Positions 18,367 through 62,866 are shown, counted from the first letter of the stretch. The stretch is DNA of 64,000 nucleotides from a bacterium (GCA_965218795.1 OZ244653.1:3136001-3200000), one strand, 5' to 3'. The notes: generated from the sequence alone by a model not told the origin. Made by a program: numbers and translations.

Positions 18367-18403
18367 GGGCAAATCGTAAATATTTGCACTTTTTTTCACA
18401 AGC

Positions 18404-21455: not shown

Positions 21456-21493
21456 CCCGTCCCTATCCGGGATCGGCGCTCCGCTTCATTCCC

Positions 21494-23416: not shown

Positions 23417-23420
23417 GCCG

Positions 23421-23723: not shown

Positions 23724-23827
23724 CTCGTCTTTCCTCCGCTTTTCTCCGATTCCATGCCGAATCGATTCAGGTTGCCCTGGAACGACTTCCGAGGCGTCCA
23801 CCGGTAAATCGTTAACGCGGGGAGCGC

Positions 23828-24861: not shown

Positions 24862-24889
24862 CCTGCCGCCCTCCTGAGCGGCGTCGCCC

Positions 24890-28443: not shown

Positions 28444-28446
28444 TGG

Positions 28447-30344: not shown

Positions 30345-31579
30345 CGATCGACCTCTCCCAGGACGAAGTCCAAGCTGGCGATGATGGCCACGACGTCCGC
30401 CATCAGCTTTCCGACCATCACCTTTTCCAGGGCCTGAACACTGATGAATGACGGTGGACGGAGCTTGGCTTTATAGGGCTTCGGCCCCCCATCGCTCACG
30501 ATGTAGAACCCCGCCTCTCCCCTTGGTCCCTCAATCGGGACGTAAGCCTCGCCCTTGGGGACGTCAAAACCATGGGTGAAAATCAGGAAGTGATGAATGA
30601 GGGCCTCCATATCGTAACGGAGGCGCTCTTTCGGAGGCGGGACGATCTTGGGCGCGTCCGCGAGGACGGGTCCGTCCGGCAGCCGGGCCAGCGCCTGTCT
30701 GACGATCTTCGCGCTCTCCCTCATTTCCGCCATCCGGACGCGATACCGGTCATAGACGTCGCCTCCGTCCAGGACGGGTACCTCAAAGTCGTAATTCTCG
30801 TATCCGCAATACGGATTCGCCCGTCTCAAGTCGTGCGCGACACCGCATGCGCGAAGATTGGGACCGGTCAGCCCGAGATCGATCGCTTCCTCTACGGTAA
30901 ACGCGCCCACGCCGACCGTCCGCCTTTTGAAGATCGGGTTTTCCGTGAGCAGGGTTTCGTATTCATCCACACGGTCCGGGAAGGCGTTGATGAACGCCCA
31001 AATCTCTTCTTCGAACTCGGGGTAGAGCGGCCGGGCCAGCCCGCCGATTCGGAAATAGCTCGTCATCATCCGAACGCCGGAGACCCGTTCGAAGATTCGG
31101 AGGATCTGCTCCCGTTCCCGAAAGCAGTACAAGAAGACCGTCATGGCGCCCAGGTCGAGGGCGTGCGTTCCCAGCCAGACCAGATGGCTCGCGATCCGCG
31201 TCAATTCGGCCAGGATCACGCGGGCCGTCTCCGCCCGAGGCGGAATCTCCAGCCCCAGAAGCTTTTCCACCGGCAAAACATACGCCAGGTTGTTGGACAG
31301 GGGGGCGAGGTAATCCATTCGGTCCGTGACGGTGATGGCCTGGGTGTACGTTTTCGCCTCCATCGTCTTCTCCATACCGGTATGGAGATAGCCGATGTCG
31401 GCCTCTGCCTTGACCACCGTTTCGCCGTTCAGCTCCAGCGCCAGGCGCAACACCCCATGGGTGCTGGGGTGTTGGGGGCCCATGTTGAGCATCATGGTTT
31501 CGGACTGGAGGCCGGATTCGTCCCCGACGGCCGCGCCTTCCGTCCAGGGCGCTCCAATATCGTCCAGGATCTCAGCCAT
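30341..31579 (-). CDS. nuoD: NADH-quinone oxidoreductase subunit D (operon 2, long form)
   Basis: NMGPQHPSTHGVLR, DRMDY, MEALIHHF, DFVLGEVDR; ATG at 31579. Confidence 0.96.
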   Translation of the reverse strand: MAEILDDIGAPWTEGAAVGDESGLQSETMMLNMGPQHPSTHGVLRLALELNGETVVKAEADIGYLHTGMEKTMEAKTYTQAITVTDRMDYLAPLSNNLAYVLPVEKLLGLEIPPRAETARVILAELTRIASHLVWLGTHALDLGAMTVFLYCFREREQILRIFERVSGVRMMTSYFRIGGLARPLYPEFEEEIWAFINAFPDRVDEYETLLTENPIFKRRTVGVGAFTVEEAIDLGLTGPNLRACGVAHDLRRANPYCGYENYDFEVPVLDGGDVYDRYRVRMAEMRESAKIVRQALARLPDGPVLADAPKIVPPPKERLRYDMEALIHHFLIFTHGFDVPKGEAYVPIEGPRGEAGFYIVSDGGPKPYKAKLRPPSFISVQALEKVMVGKLMADVVAIIASLDFVLGEVDR

Positions 31580-32231
31580 CGTCCGACTCTCTTTTTGGCC
31601 CCGGCCCGGAGGACTCCGGCTCCCGATACTCGTTGACGTATTCTTCGATGGTGGTTTTGTGCCGGGCCCGAACATACGCCTGCCCTTCGGTGAATTGCAC
31701 CGGCTCGTCCCCCGTATCGAAGTCCCTGCGGTGGGGATGCCCTTCGAAGCCCTCCGGCGTCAGGATGCGTTCCAGATGGGGGTGCCCCTTGAATTCGATG
31801 CCCATCAGGTCAAAGGCCTCCCGTTCGTGCCAGTTCGCGGAAGTCCACATCGAAACGACCGAATCCACCGCCGGCGGGTCTCCATCGACGCAGGCCTTCA
31901 GCCGAAGCCGCCGGTGATGGGGAATGGAATAAAGGTTGTAGACCACTGCGAAGCGCGGGCCGTCCACGCCCAGGTCCAGTCGATCCAGACCGCACAGATC
32001 GGCCAACAGGTTATACCGGAGATCGGCGTGGTCCCGCAGGAAGCCGCAGACCTCAAGAAGCCGGCCGGGATCGATCTCAACGGTGGTTTCGTCGCGAAAG
32101 TAGTCGACCGCCCGAATCGCATCACCGAACCGGCCGCGGAGCAAGTCCACCGTGGTTCGGGACAGCGCGACGGCCGGCTCTTCCGCCTCCGGGACTTCCG
32201 TCTGCGATTCGGGTTCCTGGATTTCGGACAT
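31572..32231 (-). CDS. nuoC: NADH-quinone oxidoreductase subunit C (operon 2)
   Basis: ANWHEREAFDLMGI, GHPHLERIL, GHPHRRDF. Confidence 0.95.
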   Translation of the reverse strand: MSEIQEPESQTEVPEAEEPAVALSRTTVDLLRGRFGDAIRAVDYFRDETTVEIDPGRLLEVCGFLRDHADLRYNLLADLCGLDRLDLGVDGPRFAVVYNLYSIPHHRRLRLKACVDGDPPAVDSVVSMWTSANWHEREAFDLMGIEFKGHPHLERILTPEGFEGHPHRRDFDTGDEPVQFTEGQAYVRARHKTTIEEYVNEYREPESSGPGPKRESDDG

Positions 32232-33547: not shown

Positions 33548-35209
33548 ATGCTGATTGACGACCTCAAAGCCATCCAGGAACTCCACGGCTACCTTCCGGA
33601 AAAAGAGCTCCGGGAACTTTCCGCGAAGAGCCGCACGCCGCTTTATGATATTCAAGGCGTTGCCTCCTTCTACCCCCATTTCCACTTGGGGCCCCCGCCT
33701 CCCGTGCGGGTGGAAGTGTGCGCGGATTTGGCCTGCCACCTGTGCGGGGCCGGCGCGCTCAAGGATCGGATTCAGGGCGATATTCCGGCCGTGGATCGGG
33801 ACAAAGTGCGCGTGAACACGGTCTCCTGTATCGGACGATGCGACCGGCCATGCGCGATATCCGTGAATGATCGCATTTACGAGAATATCCAGTCTCAAGA
33901 GGTCATGGCGCTCGTCCGCTCCGCTCTGGAAGGTGAAGACCTGACCGGAAAACCGCCGGAGATGACTCCTGGTCCCTGGAAGCTGGACCCCTACCGGAAC
34001 GGGGATAGGTATCAGGCGCTTCGCAAACTTCTCGCGGACCAGCCGCGGGAAGAAACCATTCAGGGGGTCGAAGCCGTCATCGAAAAGCTCAAGCTCGCCG
34101 GTCTCCGCGGGATGGGCGGCGCCGGCTTCCCCGCTGGACTGAAATGGGAGATCGTCCGCAAAGCCGAAGGCTCGCCCAAATACGTGGTCTGCAACGCGGA
34201 TGAGAGCGAGCCCGGAACCTTCAAAGACCGGGTCATCCTGGAATCGCTCCCCCACCTGCTCGTGGAGGGGATGATCATGGCGGGCCTGACAATAGAATCC
34301 GAAGAGGGGATTATTTATCTGCGTCATGAATACAACCACGTTCTTCCGGCCCTGGAGCGGGAGTTGAACGAGGCGCGGGAGGCGGGCCTTCTCGGCGCGG
34401 ATATCCTGGGGACAGGGCACACGTTTGATATCACCACCTTCATCAGCCCGGGCGGCTACATCTGCGGCGAGGAAACGGCCCTGCTCGAGGCCCTGGAGGG
34501 AAAACGGGCCGAGCCCCGGAACAAGCCCCCTTACCCCGGGAACGTGGGTTTGTGGGGGAAGCCGACCCTCATCAACAACGTCGAGACCTTCGCCCATGCG
34601 CCGGCCATCTACCTGAACGGGGCTGAATGGTTTATTGAACAAGGCGAAGGGGAGGCCGCCGGCCTGAAGTTCTTCGCTCTGTCCGGAGACGTAAACCGTC
34701 CCGGCGTCTATGAAGTTCCGATGGGCATCTCCGCAAGCAGACTGATCGAGCAATACGGCGGCGGTGTCTCGGAGGGCCGGGAACTCAAGGCGATCATGCC
34801 GGGTGGAACCTCCTCGGGCTTCCTTCCGGCTTCCATGGCCGACATTGCGCTGAACTTCAAACCCCTGGAACAGGTCGGATCCATGCTTGGATCCGGGGCC
34901 GTGGTTGCCATCGCCGAGGGCCGCGACATGCTGGACCTGGCCTTCAACGCCATGCGGTTTTTCCGAAACGAATCCTGCGGGAAATGCGTTCCCTGCCGGA
35001 CGGGAACCGAGAAGATCGTCGACATCCTCCAGGGCGCGCTGACCGGGAAAGGGCGTGAGGAGACCAGAGTCTTGATCGAGGAGCTGTCGGCCGCCATGCT
35101 GGAAACGTCCATCTGTGGTCTGGGGCAGGCCGCTCCGAACCCCATCCTGTCCGTCATCCGCCATTTTCCGGAGGAAGTCCTGGCCCGGATTGAGGGTCAG
35201 GCCTCATAG
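33548..35209 (+). CDS. NAD-linked formate dehydrogenase diaphorase subunit; NuoE-NuoF (FdsG-FdsB) fusion
   Basis: N-terminal ASFY, CADLAC...CIGRC ([2Fe-2S]); then GLRGMGGAGFPAGLKW, DESEPGTFKDR, YICGEET, SCGKCVPCRTG, ICGLG. Confidence 0.88.
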   Translation: MLIDDLKAIQELHGYLPEKELRELSAKSRTPLYDIQGVASFYPHFHLGPPPPVRVEVCADLACHLCGAGALKDRIQGDIPAVDRDKVRVNTVSCIGRCDRPCAISVNDRIYENIQSQEVMALVRSALEGEDLTGKPPEMTPGPWKLDPYRNGDRYQALRKLLADQPREETIQGVEAVIEKLKLAGLRGMGGAGFPAGLKWEIVRKAEGSPKYVVCNADESEPGTFKDRVILESLPHLLVEGMIMAGLTIESEEGIIYLRHEYNHVLPALERELNEAREAGLLGADILGTGHTFDITTFISPGGYICGEETALLEALEGKRAEPRNKPPYPGNVGLWGKPTLINNVETFAHAPAIYLNGAEWFIEQGEGEAAGLKFFALSGDVNRPGVYEVPMGISASRLIEQYGGGVSEGRELKAIMPGGTSSGFLPASMADIALNFKPLEQVGSMLGSGAVVAIAEGRDMLDLAFNAMRFFRNESCGKCVPCRTGTEKIVDILQGALTGKGREETRVLIEELSAAMLETSICGLGQAAPNPILSVIRHFPEEVLARIEGQAS

Positions 35210-35339
35210 ACGCGGGAGAATTCCGGACGCAAAGAATCGGGGGAGGACGAGTTGTGAATCGGGCCCGCAACAGACTGCCGCTGGACCCGACGGGTCCCCG
35301 GCTTCCGAACGGATCCTCAGAGGAAGGAAAAATCCAACA

Positions 35340-38078
35340 ATGGCCATTGCAGAAGCCATTCAGACCATCACCGTAACAATTGACGGCGAGGAGGTATCCG
35401 TTCCCGAGGGGACGACCCTCTATGACGCCGCCCTTTCCATCGGCGCCGAAATCCCCACACTGTGCCATGAAACCAAGCTGAACCCTGTGGGGGTCTGTCG
35501 GGTCTGCGTCGTCGAGGTGGAAGGAGGCCGCGTCCTTGCGCCTTCATGTTGCAGGACGGTCGAGGAAGGCATGGTCGTCAAGACGGCCTCCGAGCGGGTC
35601 AAGAATTCGCAGAAGATGCTCGTCGAGCTTCTGATGGCGGATCATCCGGCTCCCTGCGAAAGGCACCGGAAAACGGGCGACTGCGAGCTGGAGGTTCTGG
35701 CCGATCGGCTGGGCCTGACGGATTCCAGATTCGCGCCCCGTGCTCACGAAAACGGCCGTGATACCTCCTCCAAAGTCATCGACGTCGACCACGACGCCTG
35801 CATCCTTTGCGATCGGTGCATCCGGGCCTGCACGGACCTTCAGTCCAACGACGTTATCGGCCGGACGGGCAAGGGCTTTCCGGCGAAGATCAGCTTCGAC
35901 TTCGATCTGCCGATGGGCGGATCGACCTGCGTTTCCTGCGGGGAATGCGTGGCCGCCTGTCCCACCGGCGCACTGACCGAGAAGCCGTTGGTCGCCGAGC
36001 GCAGGGAAACCGCAAATCAGGTGGGCTCCGTCTGCCCCTACTGCGGGGTCGGATGCTCCATTACTTACCACGTGGAGGACAACCACATCGTCGGCGTCAC
36101 GGGCAGGGAAAGTCCGGTGAACCACGGGCGCCTCTGCGTGAAGGGCCGCTACGGATACGACTACGCCCACCACAAGGACCGGCTAACGGTCCCCCTGATA
36201 CGCAAGGACGGCGCGCCCAAGTCCCCCGAATCCCTCGACCACCCCATGGACGCCTTCCGCGAAGCCACCTGGGAGGAAGCCATGGATCGGGCGGCCTCCA
36301 GCTTCCTGCGAACCAAGCGGGCACACGGCTCTGACGCGCTGGCGGGTTTCGGTTCCGCCAAGTGCTCGAACGAGGACAACTACCTCTTTCAGAAACTGAT
36401 TCGCGCGGTCTTCGGGACCAACAACGTCGACCACTGCACACGGCTCTGCCATGCCTCTTCCGTGGTCGCACTGATGGAGCAGATCGGCAGTGGCGCCGTG
36501 TCCAACGTGTTCGCCGACGTGGGCCTGGCCGACGTGGCGCTGGTGGCCGGCTCCAATGCCGAGTCCAACCATCCAGTGGCGGCGACCTTCATGAAGGAAG
36601 CGCAAGAGTCCGGGATGAAGCTGATCGTGGCCGACCCGCGCAAGGTTTCCCTCGCGCGGCGCGCCGACTACTATGTCGGCTTCCGGCCGGGGACGGACGT
36701 CGCATTCTTCAACGGCATGCTGCACGTCATCTTCCGGGACGGGCTGGAAAACAAGAAGTTCATTGCAATGCGGACAGAGGGTTTCGAGGCTCTCCGCCGG
36801 CTGGTCGCCGATTATCCGCCCGGTCGCGTGGAGAAGATCACAGGCGTCAAGGCCGAGCTCATCGAAGAAGTCGCCCGGGTGTACGCCACGGCGGAGCGGG
36901 CCATCACCTTCTGGGGCATGGGGATCAGCCAGCATACCACCGGGACGGACAACACACGCTGCCTCGTCGATCTGGCCCTGGTGACCGGCCACATCGGCCG
37001 CCCCGGAACGGGCCTGCACCCGCTGCGCGGGCAGAACAACGTTCAGGGCGCTTCGGACGTGGGTCTCATTCCCACAGTCTACACGGACTATCAGTCGGTG
37101 AAAGATCCGCAGGTCAAGGAAAAGTTCGAGAAGGCTTGGGGCGCCTCCCTGAGCGACAAGCCGGGGCTGACGGTCGTCGAAATCATGCATCAGGTCCTCG
37201 ACGGCAACATCAAGGCCATGTACATCATGGGCGAGAACCCCCTCCTCTCCGACCCCAACACCAATAAGGTCAAAAAGGCGCTCGCCGCGATGGAGTTCCT
37301 GGTCGTCCAGGATATCTTCCTGACCCAGACCGCACGGTACGCGGACGTCGTCCTTCCAGCCACCGCATTTCCGGAAAAGACCGGGACATATACCAACACG
37401 GACCGCCGCGTCCAGGTCGGAGAGAAGGCGCTCGTTCCGCCCGGACAGGCCCGCACGGACTGGGAGGTGGTCGCGGACATGGCGCGCCGGATGGATTACC
37501 CCATGAAATACGATTCGGTCGAAGAGATATTCGAGGAAGTCCGCGCCGTCACGCCCAGCATGGCGGGCCTGACGTACGATCGGCTCCGGGAGACCGGGGG
37601 CATCAACTGGCCCGCGCCCGATGAGGACCATCCGGGGACAAACGTCCTCTTCGAGGAAGAGTTTCCCAACGGCAAGGGAAAGCTGGTCGCTTGCGAATGG
37701 AAACCGGCCTTCGAGGTCGAAGACGATGAGTATCCGCTCATCCTCAACACCGGACGCATGCTCGAGCACTGGCACACGGGCGTCATGACCCGCCGGTCCA
37801 AGGCCCTGCACGGCATCCAGCCCGAAGCTCTGGTGGAGATGCACCCGGACGACCTGGAGGAACTGGGAGTGAAGAGCGGGGATTTCGTCCGGGTGAGCTC
37901 CCGGCGCGGTGAGATCCGCCTGAAGGCAATCGGGACGGACTACACGCCGAGAGGCAGCGTGTTCATCCCCTTCCATTTCGAAGAGGCGGCGGCCAACCTC
38001 CTGACCATCGACGCTCTCGATCCGTACGGAAAGATCCCCGAGTTCAAGTACTGCGCCGTCAAGGTCGAACCGGCGTAG
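35340..38078 (+). CDS. fdhF: formate dehydrogenase alpha subunit (Mo/W-bis-PGD, FdsA/FdhF type, Cys ligand)
   Basis: NuoG-like Fe-S N-terminus, CPYCGVGC, GRLCVKG, NNVDHCTRLCHASS, PLRGQNNVQGASD, GKIPEFKYCAV. Confidence 0.93.
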   Translation: MAIAEAIQTITVTIDGEEVSVPEGTTLYDAALSIGAEIPTLCHETKLNPVGVCRVCVVEVEGGRVLAPSCCRTVEEGMVVKTASERVKNSQKMLVELLMADHPAPCERHRKTGDCELEVLADRLGLTDSRFAPRAHENGRDTSSKVIDVDHDACILCDRCIRACTDLQSNDVIGRTGKGFPAKISFDFDLPMGGSTCVSCGECVAACPTGALTEKPLVAERRETANQVGSVCPYCGVGCSITYHVEDNHIVGVTGRESPVNHGRLCVKGRYGYDYAHHKDRLTVPLIRKDGAPKSPESLDHPMDAFREATWEEAMDRAASSFLRTKRAHGSDALAGFGSAKCSNEDNYLFQKLIRAVFGTNNVDHCTRLCHASSVVALMEQIGSGAVSNVFADVGLADVALVAGSNAESNHPVAATFMKEAQESGMKLIVADPRKVSLARRADYYVGFRPGTDVAFFNGMLHVIFRDGLENKKFIAMRTEGFEALRRLVADYPPGRVEKITGVKAELIEEVARVYATAERAITFWGMGISQHTTGTDNTRCLVDLALVTGHIGRPGTGLHPLRGQNNVQGASDVGLIPTVYTDYQSVKDPQVKEKFEKAWGASLSDKPGLTVVEIMHQVLDGNIKAMYIMGENPLLSDPNTNKVKKALAAMEFLVVQDIFLTQTARYADVVLPATAFPEKTGTYTNTDRRVQVGEKALVPPGQARTDWEVVADMARRMDYPMKYDSVEEIFEEVRAVTPSMAGLTYDRLRETGGINWPAPDEDHPGTNVLFEEEFPNGKGKLVACEWKPAFEVEDDEYPLILNTGRMLEHWHTGVMTRRSKALHGIQPEALVEMHPDDLEELGVKSGDFVRVSSRRGEIRLKAIGTDYTPRGSVFIPFHFEEAAANLLTIDALDPYGKIPEFKYCAVKVEPA

Positions 38079-43196: not shown

Positions 43197-44036
43197 GTGG
43201 CGCACAAAGGATTCATCCAGCCGAGGTATCTCATCACGCCCGGCGAGCTCGGCGGCCGGCTGGGCGAGGTGACGCTCATCGACGTCCGGCCCGGAGAGGA
43301 TTATGCCAACGGCCACATCGAAACCGCCCTTCATTTCGATTTCTACGGCATCAGCCTGAACGACACGTCCGAAGCTCCGCTGAACGCCTTTCTGTGGATG
43401 GTCGAGAACCTGTTCGGGTTTCACGGGGCGGCCAGGGACAAAACGGTCGTCTTCTACGACCATGAGTCCGGCGAGCGCGCGGCGCGCGGCGTCTGGCTGC
43501 TCGAAGTGTTCGACCACCCGGACGCGAAGCTCCTGGACGGGGGCCTCCAGGCCTGGGAGGCGGCGGGCCATCCCCTCACGACCGAAGCCGCAGGCGTCGA
43601 GCGGGTCAGCTTCGAGGAGAACCCCCGCCGGATGGACCGCTTGGCGACGCGGTTCGACATGCGCGCGGCTATCGACAACCCGGACATCATCCTGCTCGAT
43701 ACCCGGCGGGAATCCGAATACATCGGGACGGAAAAGCGGGCCCGGCGGGTCGGGACGATACCGGGTTCTGTCCACATCTTCTGGCGGGAGCATCTGGATG
43801 AGAATGGAGCCTACCGGCCAGCCGATGAAATCCGGTCGCTCTATGAATCCAGGGGCGTCACGCCCGACAAGATCATTCTCCCTTACTGCCAGGGCGGGTA
43901 TCGATCGGCGAATACGTATCTTGCCCTGAAGATGCTGGGGTACCCCAACGTGAAAAATTATCTCGGGTCATGGTGGGAGTGGGGGAACCGCGACGATTCG
44001 GTCATCGCCCTTCCGCCAAAAGACTCATCACAATGA
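43197..44036 (+). CDS. tandem rhodanese sulfurtransferase (SseA/TST-like)
   Basis: DVR..Y..GHI, LLDGG, DTR..EY.G, GTIPGS, catalytic loop YCQGGYRS, YLGSWWEW; AGGAGG RBS. Confidence 0.92.
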   Translation: MAHKGFIQPRYLITPGELGGRLGEVTLIDVRPGEDYANGHIETALHFDFYGISLNDTSEAPLNAFLWMVENLFGFHGAARDKTVVFYDHESGERAARGVWLLEVFDHPDAKLLDGGLQAWEAAGHPLTTEAAGVERVSFEENPRRMDRLATRFDMRAAIDNPDIILLDTRRESEYIGTEKRARRVGTIPGSVHIFWREHLDENGAYRPADEIRSLYESRGVTPDKIILPYCQGGYRSANTYLALKMLGYPNVKNYLGSWWEWGNRDDSVIALPPKDSSQ

Positions 44037-45109: not shown

Positions 45110-45931
45110 TCACAAGTCGTTGCGAAATACGCAAGGCCGTCCCACTCCTTTTTCCACGGCCCAATCGTACGCCCATTTCCCCACCGCGGCGTCCCACATC
45201 CCCATGCCCTGTGACGGGCAAAGCGTGATCTCGTCCTTCTCCCGGCGGCCCGGATCCTTGCCCGCGATCACGTCGCAGAGATCCACGACGTCCTCATCCT
45301 TCAGGTCGCCTGAAGCCTTCAGGCTCCCATAGGGCTCCATCGGGGGGGGGGGGGGTCGCAGAGGATCTGCTCCTTCCAGACGGGAAAGACTCTGGATCGC
45401 CGGACCGTTTCCCCGTCGATCTCGCCGCGGGCCACTTGCGTGACGTGCGTTCCGGGCTCGAGCCATTCCCCCTGGAAGACCGGCCTTCCGGCGTTCGTGC
45501 AAGTGACGACGATATCGCATCCCCTGACGGCGTCCTCAGGGGCGTCCACGGGTATCACGGACTGGGCGATTTCTCTGGAGAGCCTGGACACAAGGGCGTC
45601 CCGCCTGGAAGGCGTCCGCCCGCAGAGCCGGACCTCCCGTATACCGGGCCGCTCGTTCAGCACCGCGTTGATCTGCGCGCTAGCGTGCCGTCCGGCGCCG
45701 AAGAATCCCAGAACGTGGAATCCTTACGGGAGAGATAGCGGACCGACAGGGCCGTCGGTGCGACGGTCCTCGCGTTCATCAGCAGGTAATGACTCATGAT
45801 GGCGAGAAGCTTCATCCCGCTCATTGAGGATGAGCGTGGGTTCTCCTTCCCGGGGCTCACTTTGTGATCGAATCACCCGATGGACTCCGAAGGAACCGAA
45901 ATGGGGGAAGGGGAATAGATATGGGTTTCAC
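45110..45931 (-). pseudogene. ornithine cyclodeaminase / mu-crystallin family gene, frameshifted and N-terminally degraded
   Basis: Three frames join: NARTVAPTALSVRYLSRKDS | VLGFFGAGRHASAQ...CDIVVTCT...GEWLEPGTHV | ...DVIAGKDPGRREKDEITL..SQGMGMWDAA; shifts near 45715 and at a 14-nt G tract (45342-45355). Confidence 0.8.
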
Positions 45932-47617
45932 CTAGCGCCGCCTGCCCAGAAGCTCCTGTTCGAGCAGGTTGATCAATTCCGCCGCCAGCTGGGACATGTC
46001 CTCAACAACGACGTGGTTGGGATAGATCTCCCGCACGTAAGCGTCCTCGATTCCCACGGCGATGATCCGGAAACCCCGCCGCTCGAGCTCTTCCACCGCA
46101 TCGATCAGATTGCGCACGTTGCCGTTGGGCTGTCCGTCCGAAATGATGATGATCGCCTTGACGTTCTCGGGCCTTCTCGCCAGTCGCCGCGCCGCGAATG
46201 CCAGATGCTCCTCGTCCCAGTTGTTGAACCGGGGAGCGATGTGGACGAGCCGTGTCCGGACGGTCCGGTAGGCATCCTCGAAGGTCTTGTAGAGGCGGTG
46301 TTCCAGCCGGCTGTGCCGGATGTGCCGAAACTGGAAGACCGGCACGTGGCCGTAGTTGTGGGCCATGACGGCTTCGGAAGCCTGGGTGGAATACCCGATG
46401 ATCTCGAAGGGGACGGAGATCCCTTCCAGGGCCTCGGCACAAAGGACCGACGCTTGGCGGGCCACCAGAAACTTCTTCTTGCGGTTCATGCTGCCGCTTT
46501 CGTCCACCAGCAGCGTGAAGGCCACATCCAGCCGGTCGGGTTCGACCCTCCTCTGGAACAGGCGGAAGTTCCCCGTCCGCTGTTTCCAGACCTTGGCCAG
46601 ATTCAGCCTGCCCGAGCGATAAGACCCGGCGTAGCGCACGTACTGCCGCTCGCGGATCATTCGCTGGAGGCGGCGGATCATGACCAACACTTCATGGCTC
46701 GATTCGGCGAGGACCTCCAGGTACTCCTCGAGGCTCCCGTCCGGCGGAATCAACCAGGTCCGCTCATCCGGGGCCATCGCGTCCGGGTGGATCTCCTTCG
46801 TCTTCGCGTTCCGGTCCAGCCAAGGGGCCCCGCCGAAGGCCAGGTTCGCCATATCCTCCCACTGGAGGGAAGCCCAGGCGTCCTGCTCCTCGCCCTCCGC
46901 CTCGCCGGCCTCCTCGGCTTCGCCCTCCGCCTCGATCCGGATATGCTCCTGGGCATCGGAATCCCCGTCCACGTCAGGCCCCCGGGTGAACTCCTCCTCC
47001 GGCAGTTCCAGGATCGGAGAGCAGGAACAGAGGATTTCCAACGCGGTATCCGCGGCTTCCTCCGGCGTTTCACAGGCCACGCCGCGCTTCACCAACGGCC
47101 CGATGACGCCCATAGCCAGCCGTATGTCTTCATCCAGGCGCACCGCCCCCGTCCCCCGGCCTGTCTCATAGATCCCCCAGGCCAGCCGGACCAGCAGATG
47201 AAGACCCCCGCCTTCCGTCTCCCGGCAGGCGTCGTTTTCGGCGCGTGAAACGAGAAAAAGCTCGGCGCCCGGGTATCTCTTCAGGAAGGCGTTCTCCGCC
47301 CTGGCGTCTTCCAGAGCGTGCCAAAGGAGATGGAGCGCCGCCCCTTCGGCGGGACGGAAACCGGCCGACAGTTCGGCGATCCGCCGGCTTCCCCGAAGGC
47401 TTTCAGCCGTCAGATGGGCCGCCTCATGAAGGGTCTCTCCCCGCTCGGTGAGAGAATCCCTTCCGGGCTGAATGCTCACCCGGTCTCCGTCGTTTCCGTG
47501 ACCGGGGCCGAATTCGAGTTTCAGGCCGAACCGGTGGGACGTGAGCTGGGCCAGGCGCTCCCATCGGAGCCGGCGGATGTTTTGAATATCGGATGACGGC
47601 GACTTTGAAGGAACCAC
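45932..47617 (-). CDS. von Willebrand factor A domain protein (NorD/CbbO/CobT-like architecture)
   Basis: N-terminal HEAAH and ALEDARAE, acidic linker, SGRLN, MIDAS LLVDESGSM, IISDGQP. Confidence 0.85.
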   Translation of the reverse strand: MVPSKSPSSDIQNIRRLRWERLAQLTSHRFGLKLEFGPGHGNDGDRVSIQPGRDSLTERGETLHEAAHLTAESLRGSRRIAELSAGFRPAEGAALHLLWHALEDARAENAFLKRYPGAELFLVSRAENDACRETEGGGLHLLVRLAWGIYETGRGTGAVRLDEDIRLAMGVIGPLVKRGVACETPEEAADTALEILCSCSPILELPEEEFTRGPDVDGDSDAQEHIRIEAEGEAEEAGEAEGEEQDAWASLQWEDMANLAFGGAPWLDRNAKTKEIHPDAMAPDERTWLIPPDGSLEEYLEVLAESSHEVLVMIRRLQRMIRERQYVRYAGSYRSGRLNLAKVWKQRTGNFRLFQRRVEPDRLDVAFTLLVDESGSMNRKKKFLVARQASVLCAEALEGISVPFEIIGYSTQASEAVMAHNYGHVPVFQFRHIRHSRLEHRLYKTFEDAYRTVRTRLVHIAPRFNNWDEEHLAFAARRLARRPENVKAIIIISDGQPNGNVRNLIDAVEELERRGFRIIAVGIEDAYVREIYPNHVVVEDMSQLAAELINLLEQELLGRRR

Positions 47618-47654
47618 GGAAGATCATCCGGGGATGGAGGGCGTCGAACGCTCT

Positions 47655-48563
47655 CTATTTGGACTTCGCCGGCTTCTTGGCGGGACCGAAATAGTTGTCG
47701 ACCATATCCTGAATGACCTGCGCGTCAAAGGGGGGAACCTTGCTGATAAGGGTATGCCGGGCGGCCTCCTGTGGGCCGAACTGCATGGCCATCCGGGCCC
47801 AGTCGATGACCCGTCGGGTGCTGCATGACCCGAAAAGCTTCTCTTCGGATATAGCGGCCCGCAGATCTCCCGCGCACCGGACCATCTTTCGTACCGATTC
47901 CCGGTCCGGATGTCCGCTCTGAACGGCGACGGCCTCCACTTCCGCGTCCTCCAAAAGATAGCTCATTCGGATCGTCATGGGAAAGCGGTCCAGCAGGGCC
48001 TCGTTCAGAGGTTTGGTGCCTCCGTACTTGCGCTCCTCTGAGGGATTCATCGTGGCGAAGAGGCGAAAATTCGGATGGGGACGGATCACGCGGCCGTCGT
48101 ATTCGGTCAGGACGATCATCCGGTCGTCATCGAGCAGGGAGTGGAGACAAAAGGCGATCTCCGGAAGACAGGCGTTGATCTCGTCGATGAGAAGCCAGTC
48201 GCCCGCCTGCATGGCCTGAACCAGAACGCCGTCCGACCAGTACGTCCCGGCCTCGTTGATCATGAGTTTGCCGACGAATTCATCCACCGTCGTCATCCCG
48301 TTCAGGTTGACGCGGCGAAGTCCGTTGTGGGTCTCGTGAGCCAGATGCCGGATGGCGAGGGTCTTACCGACCCCCGTCTCCCCGATCAGCAGGACGGGGA
48401 GCCGGCGGCCGACCGCCCACATGATCTTTTCCAGCGCGCCGTCGGCCGGAATGTAGAACTGGGGGGGCGGCACGAATTCGCTCGACCCTTCCTGACGGAC
48501 GGGGAGCTCCACGGAGCCGTACGAAAAAACCGCTTCTGAACGCGCTGCTTTCGGACGGGTCAT
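47655..48563 (-). CDS. MoxR-type AAA+ ATPase, CbbQ/NirQ/NorQ/GpvN-like
   Basis: Walker A GETGVGKT, Walker B LLIDEIN, ATMNP, ALLDRF, C-terminal STRR. Confidence 0.9.
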   Translation of the reverse strand: MTRPKAARSEAVFSYGSVELPVRQEGSSEFVPPPQFYIPADGALEKIMWAVGRRLPVLLIGETGVGKTLAIRHLAHETHNGLRRVNLNGMTTVDEFVGKLMINEAGTYWSDGVLVQAMQAGDWLLIDEINACLPEIAFCLHSLLDDDRMIVLTEYDGRVIRPHPNFRLFATMNPSEERKYGGTKPLNEALLDRFPMTIRMSYLLEDAEVEAVAVQSGHPDRESVRKMVRCAGDLRAAISEEKLFGSCSTRRVIDWARMAMQFGPQEAARHTLISKVPPFDAQVIQDMVDNYFGPAKKPAKSK

Positions 48564-48580
48564 TCAGACAATCAGGCGGA

Positions 48581-49396
48581 TCAGCCGGCCACGCCCTTCT
48601 TCGCCGTCAAAAACATGAGGATCGCTTCCAGGACGCCGCCCCCGATGGCACGCGCCTTATCGGATATGGTGAAACAGTGCTCTCTGCGGCATCGGGGATC
48701 GACATCCGCCACCTTGAAGCCTCCGGTCACGGAGAGCCCGTCCCGCAACAGGCCGCGCAGTATGCCGTCGATCCGGGTCACGACCGGCAGGCCAGCGACC
48801 TCGGCCACCGTCTCTCCGGCCTGAACCTGGTCTCCAATTCGCCGAACGCCTCGGAAGAGGCCTTCGCCGGGGGCGCGGAGCACCCGTTCATCGGTTTTTC
48901 CGCCCACGCTGCCCGGCACGCCGGTATTGGGCTCGGCCGCACCCTCGAGGATCAATCGGGCGAGGTCGTGACCCCGGTTGGTTTCGATCACCACGTCCAC
49001 GTCTTCGCCGGCGGAAAATCCCGGCCCCAGACCAATGACCACATCGGCCATTCCTCGCCGTGTACCCAGATTTTTCTTGGCCAGGATGGCATCGACCAGC
49101 GCAAACGGATTCAGCCGCTCCGTGATACCCGCCTCCGGGTCGGCAATAATGGGAACCATGCCCTCCTGGCAGATTTGCAGCGCCTGGTCCGGGGAATCCG
49201 CCCTTCGCGCAGTCATTCCCTCGACTGTCGCCTCTCCCCGCCATATGGCTTCGGCGAATGCGACCGTACGACGGATAACGGTCGGATTGTCAATATCGGT
49301 GGCGATAACCGGAAAGCCGGAACGAACCAGCCGGTGAATGACACCGGTGGCCAGGTCTCCCGCCCCTCTCACGACAACGAAGGTGTCTTCAAACAC
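48581..49396 (-). CDS. yqeB: selenium-dependent molybdenum hydroxylase system protein, YqeB/EF2563 family (short form without XdhC part)
   Basis: VRGAGDLATG, IRRTVAF, DAILAKKNLGT, GLGPGF, ETNRGH.L.R, PNTGVPG, ERVLRAP, DVDPR, ISDKARAIGGGVLEA. Confidence 0.92.
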   Translation of the reverse strand: MFEDTFVVVRGAGDLATGVIHRLVRSGFPVIATDIDNPTVIRRTVAFAEAIWRGEATVEGMTARRADSPDQALQICQEGMVPIIADPEAGITERLNPFALVDAILAKKNLGTRRGMADVVIGLGPGFSAGEDVDVVIETNRGHDLARLILEGAAEPNTGVPGSVGGKTDERVLRAPGEGLFRGVRRIGDQVQAGETVAEVAGLPVVTRIDGILRGLLRDGLSVTGGFKVADVDPRCRREHCFTISDKARAIGGGVLEAILMFLTAKKGVAG

Positions 49397-49618
49397 GCAA
49401 ACTCTCCTGCTGAATCGAATAGACCTGGAAAGCGAATGAAATCATATCATTGCAAGAAGATTCACTGCAATTGATTGAATCATTTATATATAGTCTGTAT
49501 ACAGAATAGCTCACAATTGCAAATTGAGCATTATTCAGGAAGGGCTCGGAACGCGGGGAGGGTTTCCAATCCTTCCAAGTCATCGCAACGGAAGGTCGTT
49601 CCATTGGGTGCGCAGAAG

Positions 49619-50110
49619 GTGAGACTGCCCGTACACATAAGGGAAATGCGGGATTCCGACATGAACGACGTCATGGCGATCGAAGCGGAGGCTTTTTCCG
49701 TTCCCTGGATCCGCGACCATTTTCTTCAAGAACTCGACCTGCCGGGGATCTCCAACCTGCTCGTGGCGGAAGCTGAAGGTTCATCCGGCACGATGGCCGG
49801 CTACGCTTGCTATTCCCTCATCGTGGACGAAGCGCACATCACGAATTTCGTCGTCCGGGACATCTATCGGCGAAAGGGGATCGGAGAACAGCTCCTGCAC
49901 CATCTGCTTGACCGGGCGACCCGCCAGGGGGCCCGGTGCGCGACCCTCGAGGTTCGGTTGTCCAATCAGGCCGCCCGCTGGCTCTACGAAAAATTCGGTT
50001 TTGCCCCGGCCGGTATCCGCAGAGATTATTATCCGGACAACAAAGAAGATGCCCTGGTGATGTGGGCCAATCTTTCGAAAGAGGCCTTTGACACATGTTC
50101 TACCGGTTGA
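49619..50110 (+). CDS. rimI: ribosomal protein S18 alanine N-acetyltransferase
   Basis: IE..AFSVPW, EAHITN, RRKGIG, TLEVRLSN..A..LYEKFGF...GIRRDYY....EDALVM; GTG start inferred. Confidence 0.9.
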   Translation: MRLPVHIREMRDSDMNDVMAIEAEAFSVPWIRDHFLQELDLPGISNLLVAEAEGSSGTMAGYACYSLIVDEAHITNFVVRDIYRRKGIGEQLLHHLLDRATRQGARCATLEVRLSNQAARWLYEKFGFAPAGIRRDYYPDNKEDALVMWANLSKEAFDTCSTG

Positions 50111-50454: not shown

Positions 50455-51105
50455 ATGTATTGGCTGGATATTGTCATTCTCGGAACCCTCGGTATCAGCG
50501 TTATCTACAGCTTCGTCCGAGGCGTTATCCGTGAAGTTTTCTCCTTTCTCGCCATCATTGCGGGCTATATGGTGGCCACACGGGTCTATGGATACGGAAC
50601 TCCACATCTGAAATGGGCCGTGTCCGATCCGCGGATAGCCGGGATCATCAGCTTTGTCGCCGTTTTCATCGTCATCAGCCTTTTGGTCGGCGCTCTGGGG
50701 AGGATGGTCCACACCGCGACCAAGAAAGCAAAGCTCTCTTTCGCGAACCGGATTCTGGGCGGCTTTTTCGGTTTCGTCAAGGGGGTCATCTTTGTCTCCG
50801 TTTTACTGTTGCTGATTCCCGTGTTCTCGCGCTCCGCCTCTCAAGGCCAACTCCTCAAGGATTCCGTCGTCGCGCCTTTTTTCGATGTAGCCACTGAAGC
50901 CCTCGCTTTGGTATTTCCAACGAAAAAATACGGCTTGCTGGATAACCGACTCACCAACGAGCTTCGTCAGTTCCGCGAAAGCCACAGCGACACCTTTTGG
51001 ACGGCCATCTCCCGCATGATTCAGCGAAAGCGGCCCGCTGATTCGAGCGATCCGGGTCAGACCGAAGAGGAAGAGCGCGAGATGCAGAAAATTCTCAAGG
51101 AGTGA
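50455..51105 (+). CDS. cvpA: CvpA family membrane protein
   Basis: WLDIVIL, RGVIRE, NRILGGFFGFVKG, S.VAP. Confidence 0.88.
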   Translation: MYWLDIVILGTLGISVIYSFVRGVIREVFSFLAIIAGYMVATRVYGYGTPHLKWAVSDPRIAGIISFVAVFIVISLLVGALGRMVHTATKKAKLSFANRILGGFFGFVKGVIFVSVLLLLIPVFSRSASQGQLLKDSVVAPFFDVATEALALVFPTKKYGLLDNRLTNELRQFRESHSDTFWTAISRMIQRKRPADSSDPGQTEEEEREMQKILKE

Positions 51106-52036
51106 CTCATCCCGGACAGAATTTTTGCCGAACACAACCCCCTGGCTCAAAGATCTCGAGGCGGACCCTCTCCGCGGAGCGACCGAGTTGGCGGGCCCCC
51201 TACACCAATGGCCTCAACGCTTCGCTCTCTGAACTCTCTCTTGCCCCGAAACCAGGCTTTCTGGCAACACTGACCGATCTTGCGGGCTCGATCCGTCGGT
51301 CTCAGCCCCCGATGGAGTCCCTCTTCCACCTTGCCAACGCCGCGCTGCCTGCGGCCGAGGCCGCCCCGGATCCAACCGTAAAGTGCAGACGGCCCTCCGG
51401 GGGTTCATTCGGGTCCAGCAGACCATGGGAGCCCAAGCGGTCCGGAGGAACCTCCCACTGTTGCGGCCGGGCAGCCGAATCTTCACACACTCGGCCAGCA
51501 GCCTGGTTGAAACGGCCATTCGCCGGGCGGATCGAAGACAACGGGGCGGGGTGAAGGGTATCCGGGTCATCTGCACGGAGTCGCGCCCTGCCGGAGAAGG
51601 CATTGGGCTCGCCCGGCGGCTTTTTCAGGCCGGAATCTTCACCACGCTCGTTACGGACGCGGCCGCCGGGGAAGCGCTCGGCGAAGCCGACTTGTTTCTG
51701 ACAGGCGCGGACAGCGTGACGCAAGAAGGAGTCATTCACAAGGTGGGAACCTCCCTGATTGCGGAAATGGCCAAGAAAAAGGGAATCCCCTGCTTTGCCC
51801 TGACAACGCCGCAGAAACTCCTCCCGGAGAGGCTTTTGTCCCTATCCTGGCGTGCGCTGCGGGAGGCGGATGAGATCCTGCGAACTTCCTCTCGCCGTCT
51901 CATGGTCCAAAATCCGACCTTCGACCGGACTGCGTGGAACCGGCTGACGGCCGTCGTCACCGAAGAGGGTCCGATGTTGCAGGGGGAGGTATTCCGTCAT
52001 TTGCGGGCGCTGCGGATTGTAAAAAGCTGGACATAA
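51102..52036 (+). pseudogene. eIF-2B alpha / ribose-bisphosphate isomerase-like protein with two frameshifts
   Basis: Three frames join: DLEADPLRGATELA | IRRSQPPMESLFHLAN | THSASSLV, ESRPAGEG, TDAA, GADSV, HKVGT, NPTFDRT, VTEEG. Confidence 0.75.
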
Positions 52037-52133
52037 CGTTCCGGTGGGGAACGGTTGGCGGTCAAACGTGCAATTTTATATACTTGCCCGCTGTCGGCTC
52101 GGCTGGACTGATTTCTCGTCAAAGGGAACGAGC

Positions 52134-53251
52134 ATGCAAATACTGGTCACAGGGGGGGCCGGATTCATTGCCTCCTTCATCGTTGACGAGCTGGTTCGCC
52201 GAGGACATCAAGTCCGGATCTTCGACAACCTCACCGATCAGGTGCATCCGGGCAACCAGCCCCCCGATTACCTGAATCCCGCCGCCGAATTCATACGGGG
52301 GGACATCTCCGCGATCGGGACGGCCTGCGCGATGCGCTCGACGGCGTAGAGACCGTCTTCCATAAAGCGTCGGCCGTTGGCGTTGGTCAGTCCCAATACG
52401 AGATTAAGCACTATGTGGACGTGAACATCGGCGGAACAGCCAACTTGCTGGATATCATGGCCAATGAAGACCACAAGGTGAAAAAAATCATCGTTGCCGC
52501 ATCGATGAGCAGTTACGGCGAAGGATGTTACGAAAACGTGAGCGGAGAGATTGTCCGTCCACTGCTGCGGACGCCTGAACAGATGGCCGGGAAGGAGTGG
52601 GAGCTTCTGGACCCTGGAGACGGCTCAACGCTCGATCCCGTTCCCACCAGTGAACAGGCGGTCTATCATCCCAATTCGATCTACGCCATCACGAAGGGCG
52701 CCCAGGAAGAAATGGTTTTGAATTTCGGCCTCACGTACGACATTCAGGCGGTCGCCCTGCGTTATTTCAATGTCTACGGGCCCCGCCAGTCTCTTCATAA
52801 CCCTTATACGGGCGTCGCGGCCATATTCTTGAGCCGCCTCAAGAATGGGAACCAGCCTATCGTATACGAGGATGGAAGCCAGACACGCGATTTCATCTCG
52901 GTTCACGATATCGTCCGCGCAAACATGCTGGCCATGGAGCGCGATCTGGACCGGCCCTCCAGCTTCAATATCGGGACGGGGAACCCGCAGCGGATCGCCG
53001 GTATTGCGGAGACCCTGGCCGAGTTGCTCGAAGTGAGGATTCAACCAGACATTACGCAGACCTTCCGAAAGGGAGACGTGCGGCACTGCTTTGCGGACAT
53101 TGCCAAGGCCCGCAACGCCCTGGGCTTCGAGCCACAGGTCAGCTTCGAGGAGGGGATGAGGGAATTGATCCAGTGGTCTTTGGGAACGGAAGCCGTCGAC
53201 CGGGTCGATCAGGCCACCGAGGAGCTCAGGAAGCGAGGCCTGGTTTCATAA
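52134..53251 (+). pseudogene. NAD-dependent epimerase/dehydratase (extended SDR) with one frameshift, possibly a sequencing indel
   Basis: MQILVTGGAGFI...GDI then extra TC at 52308-52309; removing it restores RDRDGLRDALDGVETVFHKASAVGVGQSQY; YAITK, LRYFNVYG, RDFISVHD. Confidence 0.85.
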
Positions 53252-61246: not shown

Positions 61247-61855
61247 TTACAGCAGGTACACGAATGTGAAGACCAGGATCCAGACCAGATCGACGAAATG
61301 CCAATACAGCCCGGCCACTTCAACCCGCTGGAATTTCCCACCGTCATACCGTCCGGTCTTGCCCTCAAAGTAGACGCAGAGCAGATAGATGACCCCGCCG
61401 GTCACATGCGCCCCGTGAAATCCCGTGATGGCGAAAAAGGTCGCGCCGAACAAAGAAGAGCCCCAAGGGTTCGACCATAACGCCAAGCCCTGGTGCATCA
61501 GGTGGGCCCACTCATAGGCCTGTAGACACAGGAAGATGAATCCTCCGCCGGCGGTCAACAAGATGAAGCGGTCGAAACGCTTCCTATCGCCGTGCCTTAC
61601 GGCCGAAAGGGCTTTGACCATGGTGACACTGCTGCAGATCAGCAGAAACGTCATAAACCCCGGCAGGTTGACGCCGAGAAGCTGGGGGGCATTGGGCCAA
61701 TCGACGCTGCCGATCCGGATCGCGCCGTAACACGCCAGCAGACCGCCAAAGGTCATGGCGTCTCCAACCAGGAAAAGCCACATCCCCAGTTTTCCCCAGC
61801 TTTCCGGGGTCAGGGGAGATTGATACGCCTCCTCGTGAGTTGCCGCATGTTGCAT
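61247..61855 (-). CDS. cytochrome c oxidase subunit III family protein
   Basis: GKLGMWLFLVGDAMTF, TFLLICSS, FFAITGFHGAHV, GLYWHFVDLVW. Confidence 0.92.
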   Translation of the reverse strand: MQHAATHEEAYQSPLTPESWGKLGMWLFLVGDAMTFGGLLACYGAIRIGSVDWPNAPQLLGVNLPGFMTFLLICSSVTMVKALSAVRHGDRKRFDRFILLTAGGGFIFLCLQAYEWAHLMHQGLALWSNPWGSSLFGATFFAITGFHGAHVTGGVIYLLCVYFEGKTGRYDGGKFQRVEVAGLYWHFVDLVWILVFTFVYLL

Positions 61856-62169
61856 CAGTAGCCGCTCTCCTCTTGGGTCAGGGCCGGGCGCCGCGGGGGG
61901 CCGTTCAGGTCCCGGGACTGTCCCCGACGATACATTCGAACCAGCCAATAGGCAATGGAACCAATCACGGCAAACGGCATCAAGACCAAGAATGCCCAAC
62001 TGACGATGAATCCCGTCAGCGGTTCGCCGTCACCGAAGCACACCGCACATGCCTGGGCGGTTCCACGACCGATCCACCATGAGCAAAAAGCCGCCGGAAT
62101 GGACACTCGAATCAACCTGAACCGTGCCGAATTCACCTTCCGCTCCGTTGACGTGCGGGCCGCCCGCAA
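61855..62169 (-). CDS. small membrane protein in oxidase cluster
   Basis: AQACAVCFG followed by one TM segment; stop overlaps the next ATG. Confidence 0.55.
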   Translation of the reverse strand: MRAARTSTERKVNSARFRLIRVSIPAAFCSWWIGRGTAQACAVCFGDGEPLTGFIVSWAFLVLMPFAVIGSIAYWLVRMYRRGQSRDLNGPPRRPALTQEESGY

Positions 62170-62173
62170 GGTT

Positions 62174-62866
62174 TCAACTCAAATAGACAAGACCGAATAG
62201 AACCGGCCACAGTCCAACGACGAAATACCAGTATATCGCGCACAATTCAAGCCTCGTCCGGGAACGGGACCCGAAAGGCGCGTCGCGCAAGACGAAGAAA
62301 ACGCTGACCAGCCAGACGACCGCGCCCAGGACGTGCAAACCGTGAAATCCAATCAGCGTATAAAAAGTTCCCCCGTAGACCCCGCTGGAGATTGTCAACC
62401 CGAAGTGAATCAGCCGGGCCCATTCGCTGCCTTGGACCACCAGGAAGACAAGGCCGAGAACGGATGTCAGCAACAGATATCGTACGGACTTCGGCCGGTT
62501 CCCACACTTCCATGCGATCGACGCCCGCACCATGGTCCACGCGCTCAAGAGCAGCACCGCCGTATTGACCGACGTGATACCAAGCGGCAGGCGCGGCTGG
62601 AAGGGCGGAGGCCAAATCTGGCTCCCGTAGCGAAACACCAGGAATGCGCCGATCAGCCCGGCAAAAAACATCGCCTCGGCGCCGAGAAATACCGCTATTC
62701 CGATATACCCATTGCCGACCACCGGCCGCGGGAAATCCCCTTCGGGCTCAGGTCTCGGACCGTCTCCGCCCGCCGGCGGGTCTCCGGGCGGAACGGGAGG
62801 CCCCTGCCCGAAATCCTCCAGGCTCTCCTCGGCGATAGCCTCTCCGACGGGTACGGTACCGACCAT
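62174..62866 (-). CDS. cytochrome c oxidase subunit III family protein (second paralogue)
   Basis: FLGAEAMFFAG, NTAVLLLS, FYTLIGFHGLHV, YWYFV. Confidence 0.9.
   Translation of the reverse strand: MVGTVPVGEAIAEESLEDFGQGPPVPPGDPPAGGDGPRPEPEGDFPRPVVGNGYIGIAVFLGAEAMFFAGLIGAFLVFRYGSQIWPPPFQPRLPLGITSVNTAVLLLSAWTMVRASIAWKCGNRPKSVRYLLLTSVLGLVFLVVQGSEWARLIHFGLTISSGVYGGTFYTLIGFHGLHVLGAVVWLVSVFFVLRDAPFGSRSRTRLELCAIYWYFVVGLWPVLFGLVYLS

Follow-up and report, generated by a model that had tools for sequence, protein, structure and literature searches.

A CobS/CobT-like motor-adaptor pair encoded beside YqeB is a candidate maturation system for molybdenum hydroxylases

The bacterial DNA analyzed in this study, a 64,000-nucleotide (nt) stretch of GCA_965218795.1 (OZ244653.1:3136001-3200000, hereafter the window), carries three adjacent genes that encode YqeB, an AAA+ ATPase and a protein with a von Willebrand factor A (VWA) domain, and that we propose to act together in the maturation of molybdenum enzymes. 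The triad and the spacer beside it are as follows:

48581-49396, minus strand: yqeB, 271 amino acids (aa), GTG start, a stand-alone form without an XdhC fusion
47655-48563, minus strand: AAA+ ATPase gene, 302 aa, ATG start, encoding a motor subunit of the CbbQ/NorQ/CobS group
45932-47617, minus strand: gene of the CobT-like adaptor (the VWA protein), 561 aa, GTG start
49397-49474, no strand: divergent spacer between yqeB and a GNAT gene, 78 nt

A sequence-only reading of the window had described three intact, co-directional genes with gaps of 17 and 37 nt, and this description was borne out at exact coordinates, with all three genes on the minus strand, 17 nt between yqeB and the ATPase gene (48564-48580) and 37 nt between the ATPase and adaptor genes (47618-47654). 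An AGGAG lies 7-8 nt 5' of the GTG start of yqeB, and the promoter of the triad would be placed in the 49397-49474 spacer. A scan of 45300-49800 identified no consensus promoter in this spacer and no convincing terminator between the triad genes, the numbers of promoters and of terminator-like sites being those expected by chance. The same gene order was found in 38 other species-representative genomes, so the arrangement is not a product of chance. That reading had also noted no nor, cbb, cob or cox (CO dehydrogenase) structural genes nearby, which holds for the 55 window open reading frames (ORFs) scanned with Pfam, none of which has a MoCoBD, RuBisCO, CobN or NorB-type domain; the sole "COX" matches among them are cytochrome oxidase subunit III genes (61247-62866).

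The product of the first gene matched the NCBIfam YqeB model (TIGR03309) at 377.9 bits relative to a cut-off of 220, over positions 1-255 of the 256 in the model, had no family match in the Pfam scan, and shares 51-61% identity with proteins that NCBI names as YqeB and that are fused to XdhC. Its AlphaFold2 (AF2) model, with a predicted local distance difference test (pLDDT) score of 91.3, comprises an N-terminal half that is Rossmann-like and has GAGDLATG close to the start, a C-terminal barrel-sandwich domain and a helix at the C terminus. A Foldseek search with the model returned partial matches only and no full-length structural neighbour (TMq <=0.30), and a sequence search of the PDB found no relative. 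Two adjacent residues are of particular interest:

48674-48679, minus strand: YqeB His240-Cys241, in the motif DPR..HCxTISDK, both invariant in 20/20 aligned YqeB sequences

Cys241 is as such a candidate sulfur- or selenium-carrying cysteine. No AAA or VWA domain was fused to YqeB in the top 120 of its 1055 long relatives, whose fusion partners were XdhC, YqeC, MocA-like, class-V aminotransferase and AIRS (SelD-type) domains. According to the accessible parts of the literature, deletion of yqeB in Clostridioides difficile mimics loss of selD on xanthine and urate (PMC11448449), YqeB is expected where the genome has selD (Haft and Self 2008), and selenium-dependent purine degradation goes together with the occurrence of YqeB, YqeC and SelD (10.1101/2025.04.24.650524). 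It is these genetics in other organisms, together with the family assignments of YqeB and YqeC, that suggest an involvement of selenium; general scans of the window ORFs, covering only 64 kb of the genome, turned up no ORF with an AIRS domain. A complex prediction for YqeB and the adaptor scored 0.00 in two runs without controls, and is neither for nor against binding.

The second gene encodes an AAA+ protein with intact catalytic motifs. In Pfam it matched AAA_5 (94.6 bits) and CbbQ_C (31 bits, cut-off 20.6), with a weaker match to AAA_3 (37.8 bits), and among single-ring relatives in the PDB it scored highest with CobS (96 bits), followed by NorQ (84) and CbbQ (77). Its Walker motifs are located as follows:

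48360-48383, minus strand: Walker A GETGVGKT, residues 61-68, invariant in 28/28 aligned sequences
48180-48185, minus strand: Walker B Asp127-Glu128, invariant in 28/28

Residues N173, R193 and R250/R251 were likewise invariant in all 28 sequences, and by their positions in the AAA+ pattern we take N173 to be sensor 1, R193 the arginine finger and R250/R251 sensor 2. With its AAA_5 core, Walker motifs, sensor and arginine residues and CbbQ_C lid, the protein belongs to the CbbQ/NorQ/CobS group of MoxR-type ATPases. The designation "CbbQ/NorQ-type" given in the sequence-only reading therefore stands at the level of Pfam, through CbbQ_C, but the nearest characterized relatives of the pair are CobS and CobT. 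The score of the ATPase against the CobS equivalog TIGR01650 was nevertheless far below the cut-off (87.6 versus 558.55 bits). A fusion search among long relatives of the ATPase was uninformative, almost all of its 36 matches being midasin.

The third gene encodes the protein that we term the adaptor, which matched CobT_C (67 bits) and VWA (35.6 bits) in Pfam, with VWA_CoxE at 21.1 bits and thus below its cut-off of 26.4. The only solved relatives that it has by sequence are CobT chains; a profile of 26 members of the adaptor family (A1) matched CobT 9uka_G with E=3.3e-29 over profile positions 81-574, starting at an invariant WHALEDARxEN motif. It too fell far below the corresponding equivalog cut-off (47.8 versus 759.05 bits for the CobT model TIGR01651). 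An AF2 model with a mean pLDDT of 75.7 has a helical N-terminal domain, an acidic disordered linker, a segment equivalent to the CobT "shaft", and a VWA domain with a MIDAS (metal-ion-dependent adhesion site):

47018-47596, minus strand: N-terminal domain, residues 8-200, a helix, a small beta-sheet and seven helices (AF2)
46817-47002, minus strand: acidic disordered linker, residues 206-267, rich in E/D, pLDDT <50
46541-46642, minus strand: conserved low-confidence segment, residues 326-359, pLDDT <50
45947-46540, minus strand: VWA domain, residues 360-557, with an intact MIDAS, D372-x-S374-x-S376 (46490-46504), T411 and D494

Within the WHALEDARxEN motif of the N-terminal domain, W99, L102, D104, R106 and E108 are invariant, as are D372, S376, T411 and D494 of the MIDAS, with S374 kept in at least 90% of sequences. 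The low-confidence segment contains ten invariant residues (R328, G331, R334, G336, W344, Q346, R347, L353, F354 and R356) and sits 13-46 residues ahead of the MIDAS aspartate, much as the CobT shaft, Q373-R413, precedes D422. In the accessible parts of two 2026 preprints on CobNST (10.64898/2026.10.09.757910, 10.64898/2026.07.21.739949), the M48C-like N domain of CobT docks on the CobS lid, the linker is unseen, the shaft just before the MIDAS residue D422 is disordered until it is inside the ATP-bound CobS ring, and CobN is positioned between the two domains of CobT, beside the MIDAS. The predicted N domain of the adaptor has the layout of CobT_N, and residues 326-359, which match the shaft in position, may play the part of the shaft that enters the CobS ring. 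All parts of a CobT-like architecture are thus present in the adaptor, from the M48C-like N domain and the disordered linker to the flexible pre-VWA segment and the DxSxS..T..D MIDAS of the VWA domain. A fold search with the whole adaptor model matched VWA domains only, so the N domain was not placeable that way; the top fold matches of the VWA domain were the NorD VWA (NorD chains in NorQD complexes) and the Rea1 MIDAS domains.

Residues 64-68 of the adaptor N domain (47414-47428) read HEAAH, a complete HExxH that was found in clade A only, as defined below. At the same site clade B has IExxH and clade C HLxxH, with H68 alone kept. A metalloprotease role was considered for the N domain and rejected because the motif is not conserved across clades; HEAAH may be what is left of a metal site in the M48C-like fold.

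Could the pair be a genuine cobaltochelatase CobS/CobT of aerobic B12 synthesis, or a NorQ/NorD or CbbQ/CbbO activase? The CobT_C and CbbQ_C domains, and the fact that CobS, NorQ and CbbQ are the nearest solved relatives, speak for such an assignment. Intact Walker motifs and an intact MIDAS are features shared with CobS/CobT of CobNST. The equivalog scores given above, however, are far below the cut-offs, the family is small and separate, neither the scanned window ORFs nor the recurrent flank clusters of the 80 loci described below contain a CobN-type domain or nor or cbb (Rubisco) genes, and the family loci neighbour genes for molybdenum-cofactor maturation and hydroxylases instead of cobalamin genes. 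The likeness to NorQ/NorD and CbbQ/CbbO extends to the same AAA+ subgroup (CbbQ_C) and to the best fold match of the adaptor VWA domain, NorD, but by sequence the adaptor is CobT-like and not NorD- or CbbO-like. We therefore regard either role as extremely improbable, and the pair is best described, from its sequence relationships, as a paralogue of CobS/CobT and not as CobS/CobT proper.

A scan of a genome collection with the A1 profile identified 202 encoded relatives, the best 80 of which were kept. Loci L069-L080 were set aside, eleven of them matching the VWA domain only (25-31% identity) and one, L070, being a fragment of 97 aa, which left 68 family loci; as L066 and L067 are contigs of a single genome, these come from 67 genomes. 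The neighbourhoods were analyzed by tblastn, ORF clustering, Pfam/NCBIfam scans of cluster representatives, and hidden Markov model (HMM) searches of six-frame translations. The family is isolated, in that a search of 1.84 billion representative proteins, with 1286 proteins at E <=1e-30, found nine representatives at 460 bits or more and the next at 316. Among the loci that were set aside, the distant VWA relatives L071-L080 (25-31% identity, VWA domain only) come from Bacillota gut genomes and lie in a different conserved gene block.

The sequence-only reading depended on the closest AAA/VWA homologues being linked to yqeB or to molybdenum or selenium genes in other genomes, and such linkage was apparent in all three clades into which the family falls. 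The ATPase gene adjoins the adaptor gene in all 60 loci where upstream DNA extends for 1 kb or more, the other eight having no upstream DNA, and yqeB precedes the pair in 38/38 loci of clades A and B with upstream DNA, overlapping the ATPase gene by 4 nt in 31 of the 38 (with the start codons chosen). Clade A consists of the window and L001-L004, with adaptors that are 67-74% identical and the order yqeB-AAA-VWA in 5/5, without yqeC or xdhC around the triad. Clade B comprises 39 loci titled Nitrospinota, Nitrospinaceae or "bacterium", with adaptors ~39-44% identical where full-length; here yqeB lies upstream in 34/34 loci with upstream DNA, and yqeC and xdhC follow in 37/37 with downstream DNA. 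The yqeC product scored 166.6 bits with TIGR03172, relative to a cut-off of 73, and the xdhC product has XdhC_CoxI and XdhC_C domains. The linkage of yqeB to yqeC, xdhC or hydroxylase genes, which is absent in the 64-kb window, is seen in relatives, with yqeC and xdhC in clade B and a hydroxylase operon within 5 kb in two of the four other clade A loci.

The usual order in clade B is RidA-yqeB-AAA-VWA-yqeC-xdhC-ComF-like phosphoribosyltransferase. The bracketing genes encode a RidA/RutC-like protein upstream (L009:7826-8233) and a ComF/GntX-like phosphoribosyltransferase with a double zinc ribbon downstream (L009:13844-14599), as seen in L006-L037 and others, and acyl-CoA dehydrogenase and amidohydrolase genes lie further upstream.

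Clade C, the third group, consists of 25 Chloroflexota loci, including L041 and L047, in which the adaptor is ~34-38% identical where full-length. Directly upstream of the pair, on the same strand, are hydroxylase genes in 21 of the 22 loci with at least 1.3 kb of upstream DNA, the exception being L047, whose contig ends 2 kb upstream. These genes encode a flavin adenine dinucleotide (FAD) subunit, a 2Fe-2S subunit, a subunit with Ald_Xan_dh_C and MoCoBD_1 domains and a MoCoBD_2 subunit, and in 18 of the 20 loci measured, 62-290 nt separate the last molybdenum-subunit gene from the ATPase gene. An xdhC gene lies 5.7-7.1 kb downstream in 13/25 loci and is missing in 8 whose downstream DNA extends for 9.8 kb or more. 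Over their full lengths the split molybdenum subunits matched 3hrd_A (233 bits, next match 164) and 3hrd_B (226 bits, next match 169). These chains are the large and medium molybdopterin subunits of nicotinate dehydrogenase (NDH), which we take to correspond to nicotinic acid hydroxylase. The latter is a classical selenium-dependent molybdenum hydroxylase, as stated in the accessible part of PMC11448449, although from sequence similarity to 3HRD it does not follow that selenium is used by the Chloroflexota enzymes. A Pfam scan of 76 flank ORFs from 7 loci found no selD, mocA or further molybdenum genes.

The two proteins of the split subunit are 436 and 335 aa in length (L038, L042-L067; e.g. 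L043:5333-8986). Other neighbours of the clade C hydroxylase genes are of a sugar-acid/aldehyde type, namely KduI/IolB, dihydrodipicolinate synthase, aldehyde dehydrogenase, 2-hydroxyacid dehydrogenase and transketolase-like genes.

Across all three clades the ATPase is 62-84% identical and the adaptor 34-74%, which would fit a constant motor with an adaptor that follows its client. This combination has parallels in known systems. The CoxD, CoxE and CoxF proteins of Oligotropha carboxidovorans are also an AAA+ protein, a VWA protein and an XdhC-like protein encoded with an enzyme of the xanthine-oxidase family, and the accessible parts of two papers describe them as needed to finish the Mo-S-Cu site of CO dehydrogenase (PMC4240915; PMC2997495). 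In its accessible text the latter paper mentions AAA+ for CoxD only, and it describes XdhC-type proteins as binding and inserting the molybdenum cofactor. Unlike the Cox proteins, our adaptor falls below the VWA_CoxE cut-off, the ATPase matches AAA_5/CbbQ_C over AAA_3, there is no copper-site context, and the partners are YqeB and YqeC. CoxD is presumably of the AAA_3 (MoxR-proper) type. The parallel to CoxDEF drawn in the sequence-only reading is thus one of analogous logic and not of homology. A second parallel is the "third selenium trait" of YqeB, YqeC and SelD, to which the triad is similar in that YqeB and the clade B YqeC pass curated cut-offs and clade B has the linkage to xdhC that is reported for other organisms in the accessible parts of PMC2276186 and PMC2432076. 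It differs in its hosts, which are Nitrospinota-type uncultured bacteria and not Clostridia or Enterobacteria, and in its AAA+/VWA partner, of which the accessible YqeB/YqeC literature makes no mention.

In view of these results, we consider it probable that the three genes form one operon and that together they encode a dedicated ATP-driven maturation machine for molybdenum hydroxylases of the xanthine-dehydrogenase family. Several points weigh against this assignment. There is no molybdenum hydroxylase, xdhC, yqeC or selD in the 64-kb window, and a hydroxylase operon is found in only two of the four other clade A loci, 3.4-4.6 kb from the triad. These are L003 and L004, in which genes for the FAD, molybdenum and 2Fe-2S subunits lie 3.4 and 4.6 kb downstream, past oppositely oriented genes; no such operon lies near the triad in the window or L001. 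No fusion of the motor to YqeB, XdhC or a hydroxylase was found among the top 120 of 1055 long YqeB relatives or in the midasin-swamped ATPase search, and uncultured genomes are the source of all of the family loci. The AAA/VWA subfamilies of CoxD and CoxE are different ones, so their parallel is by analogy only. Searches by tblastn and HMM detected yqeB and yqeC in 0/25 clade C loci, which implies that the motor is tied to molybdenum-hydroxylase maturation in general and is not specific to selenium. Finally, in a quick tree of the concatenated ATPase and adaptor (51 rows, loci without both full-length genes left out), the yqeB label needs a single change (35 rows versus 16), on one branch with a Shimodaira-Hasegawa-like approximate likelihood ratio test (SH-aLRT) value of 100. 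The linkage may consequently go back to a single ancient event and have been retained ever since, and as independent evidence it counts as two or three deep clades, not 38. The interpretation given in the sequence-only reading is supported by the linkage data, with the qualification that clade C widens the role beyond selenium.

The tree also bears on the possibility that the pair is a general MoxR-type chaperone with an unrelated client, such as a formate dehydrogenase (FDH)-like enzyme or complex I, and that the adjacency of yqeB is simply inherited gene order. The mapping of the linkage to one branch is as expected under that explanation, the window contains an FdhA-like gene (35115-38078) and complex I genes (8336-31675), and molybdopterin-oxidoreductase genes or fragments occur in the flanks of L001 and L004. 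FDH and complex I had been named as alternative clients in the sequence-only reading, but their genes are not conserved beside the pair outside the small clade of the window and do not recur there in clades B or C. The linkage of yqeB has been kept across 38 species while the adaptor diverged to ~40% identity, and linkage persists in the family at adaptor identities of 34-44%, and another phylum shows a linkage of its own, to xdhC and to structural genes of hydroxylases; these observations are independent support for the maturation of molybdenum hydroxylases. Moreover, XdhC-type factors are not known to be used by enzymes of the bis-MGD (bis-molybdopterin guanine dinucleotide) type such as FDH. 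As such, a general chaperone appears quite improbable.

More difficult to set aside is an enzyme organized like a chelatase, in which YqeB (with XdhC and YqeC where present) takes the role of CobN, and the substrate of the motor is a carrier loaded with cofactor, on which a terminal oxo or sulfido ligand is exchanged for selenide, or a metal inserted, before handover to the enzyme. The closest characterized relatives of the pair are the motor of a class I chelatase, yqeB and the ATPase gene have the 4-nt overlap in 31/38 loci, and in clade B the pair lies among yqeB, yqeC and xdhC with no hydroxylase structural gene within 10 kb, all of which are consistent with a carrier as substrate. Set against this, the clade C pair has neither yqeB nor yqeC and directly follows enzyme structural genes, a placement that fits an enzyme client better, and YqeB, at 271 aa, is unlike CobN, with no solved fold that matches its full length. 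We judge this explanation to be unlikely. A specific form of it, that the trio is a third kind of class I "chelatase" in which YqeB replaces CobN/ChlH and the motor places labile selenium or sulfur on the molybdenum of the cofactor, is speculative and rather doubtful. If it were true, the selenium-insertion step that has long been sought for selenium-dependent molybdenum hydroxylases would be the work of this trio, and the NDH-like split enzyme of Chloroflexota would be one of its natural clients.

For a maturation machine that acts on the hydroxylase itself, a plausible sequence of events can be outlined from the related systems. The AAA+ protein would form a hexameric ring, as its relatives CobS, NorQ and CbbQ do, on which the N domain of the CobT-like adaptor would dock, with the flexible segment 326-359 entering the pore. 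The VWA/MIDAS face of the adaptor would hold the client, and we infer that hydrolysis of ATP would then remodel that client so that the molybdenum cofactor could be inserted or a labile terminal ligand (sulfur or selenium) installed. YqeB may serve as the cofactor- or chalcogen-handling partner in the same step, to which relatives of the system would add YqeC and XdhC.

The remaining genes of interest in the window are listed here with their coordinates:

49475-50110, plus strand: GNAT acetyltransferase gene, divergent neighbour of yqeB, conserved in clade A only
43197-44036, plus strand: tandem-rhodanese sulfurtransferase gene, inside bioF-bioA-[rhodanese]-bioD, 1.9 kb from the adaptor gene
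35115-38078, plus strand: the FdhA-like gene, a 987-aa bis-MGD enzyme whose N-terminal module is NuoG-like (2Fe-2S/4Fe-4S); the orthologous region is present in L001
8336-13950, minus strand: first complex I set, partial, of NuoK/L/M/N type
17400-31675, minus strand: second and longer complex I set, of NuoB, D, F, G, H, I, J, K, L and M/N types
51102-52036, plus strand: IF-2B-family gene, with only profile positions 101-277 matched, in the ORF 51383-52036
52044-53251, plus strand: NAD-dependent epimerase/dehydratase gene, with a frameshift near 52301-52307

The other neighbours of the triad, which are CvpA, the convergent bioF-bioA-rhodanese-bioD operon and the FdhA-like and complex I genes, are common to clade A at most. 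L001 has an ORF at the rhodanese position, between its bioA-like and bioD-like ORFs; that the rhodanese might donate sulfur or selenium is pure speculation. The intact epimerase orthologue of L001 aligns in one frame for residues 2-63 and in another for residues 61-376, and the split in the window is either a pseudogene or an assembly indel. Ahead of the IF-2B ORF, and overlapping it, lies an ORF in a different frame (51102-51554), which probably marks a second frameshift beside that of the epimerase; in L001 there is no gene between CvpA and the epimerase.

The sequence-only reading had called the system undescribed, and our literature searches, which had most subscription journals and supplements outside their scope, agree with it in finding no link of AAA+/VWA (CobT/MoxR) proteins to YqeB, YqeC, XdhC or selenium-dependent molybdenum enzymes. 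Work combining molybdenum hydroxylases, AAA+, VWA and XdhC was confined, among what was found, to CoxDEF or XdhC, and nothing was found on molybdenum hydroxylases of Nitrospina. The maturation of metalloenzymes by MoxR-type AAA+/VWA pairs is known; what is new is the paralogue of a chelatase motor and its YqeB, YqeC and XdhC partners.

The delivery of the cofactor and of a labile selenium or sulfur ligand to the buried active site of xanthine-oxidase-family enzymes is understood only in part, and a 2024 study of C. difficile, in its accessible part, describes the genes for insertion or maturation of the selenium cofactor as uncharacterized (PMC11448449). A conserved operon in which an ATP-driven motor is encoded together with YqeB, YqeC and XdhC provides defined candidate parts for reconstitution in vitro, and suggests that energy input is required at the step of ligand or cofactor delivery. 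It would also extend the CobS/CobT chelatase-motor family to a cofactor that is not a tetrapyrrole. For the annotation of Nitrospinota and Chloroflexota genomes, "CobT-related" and "CbbQ/NorQ" calls in these loci do not indicate roles in B12 synthesis, NO reductase or Rubisco.

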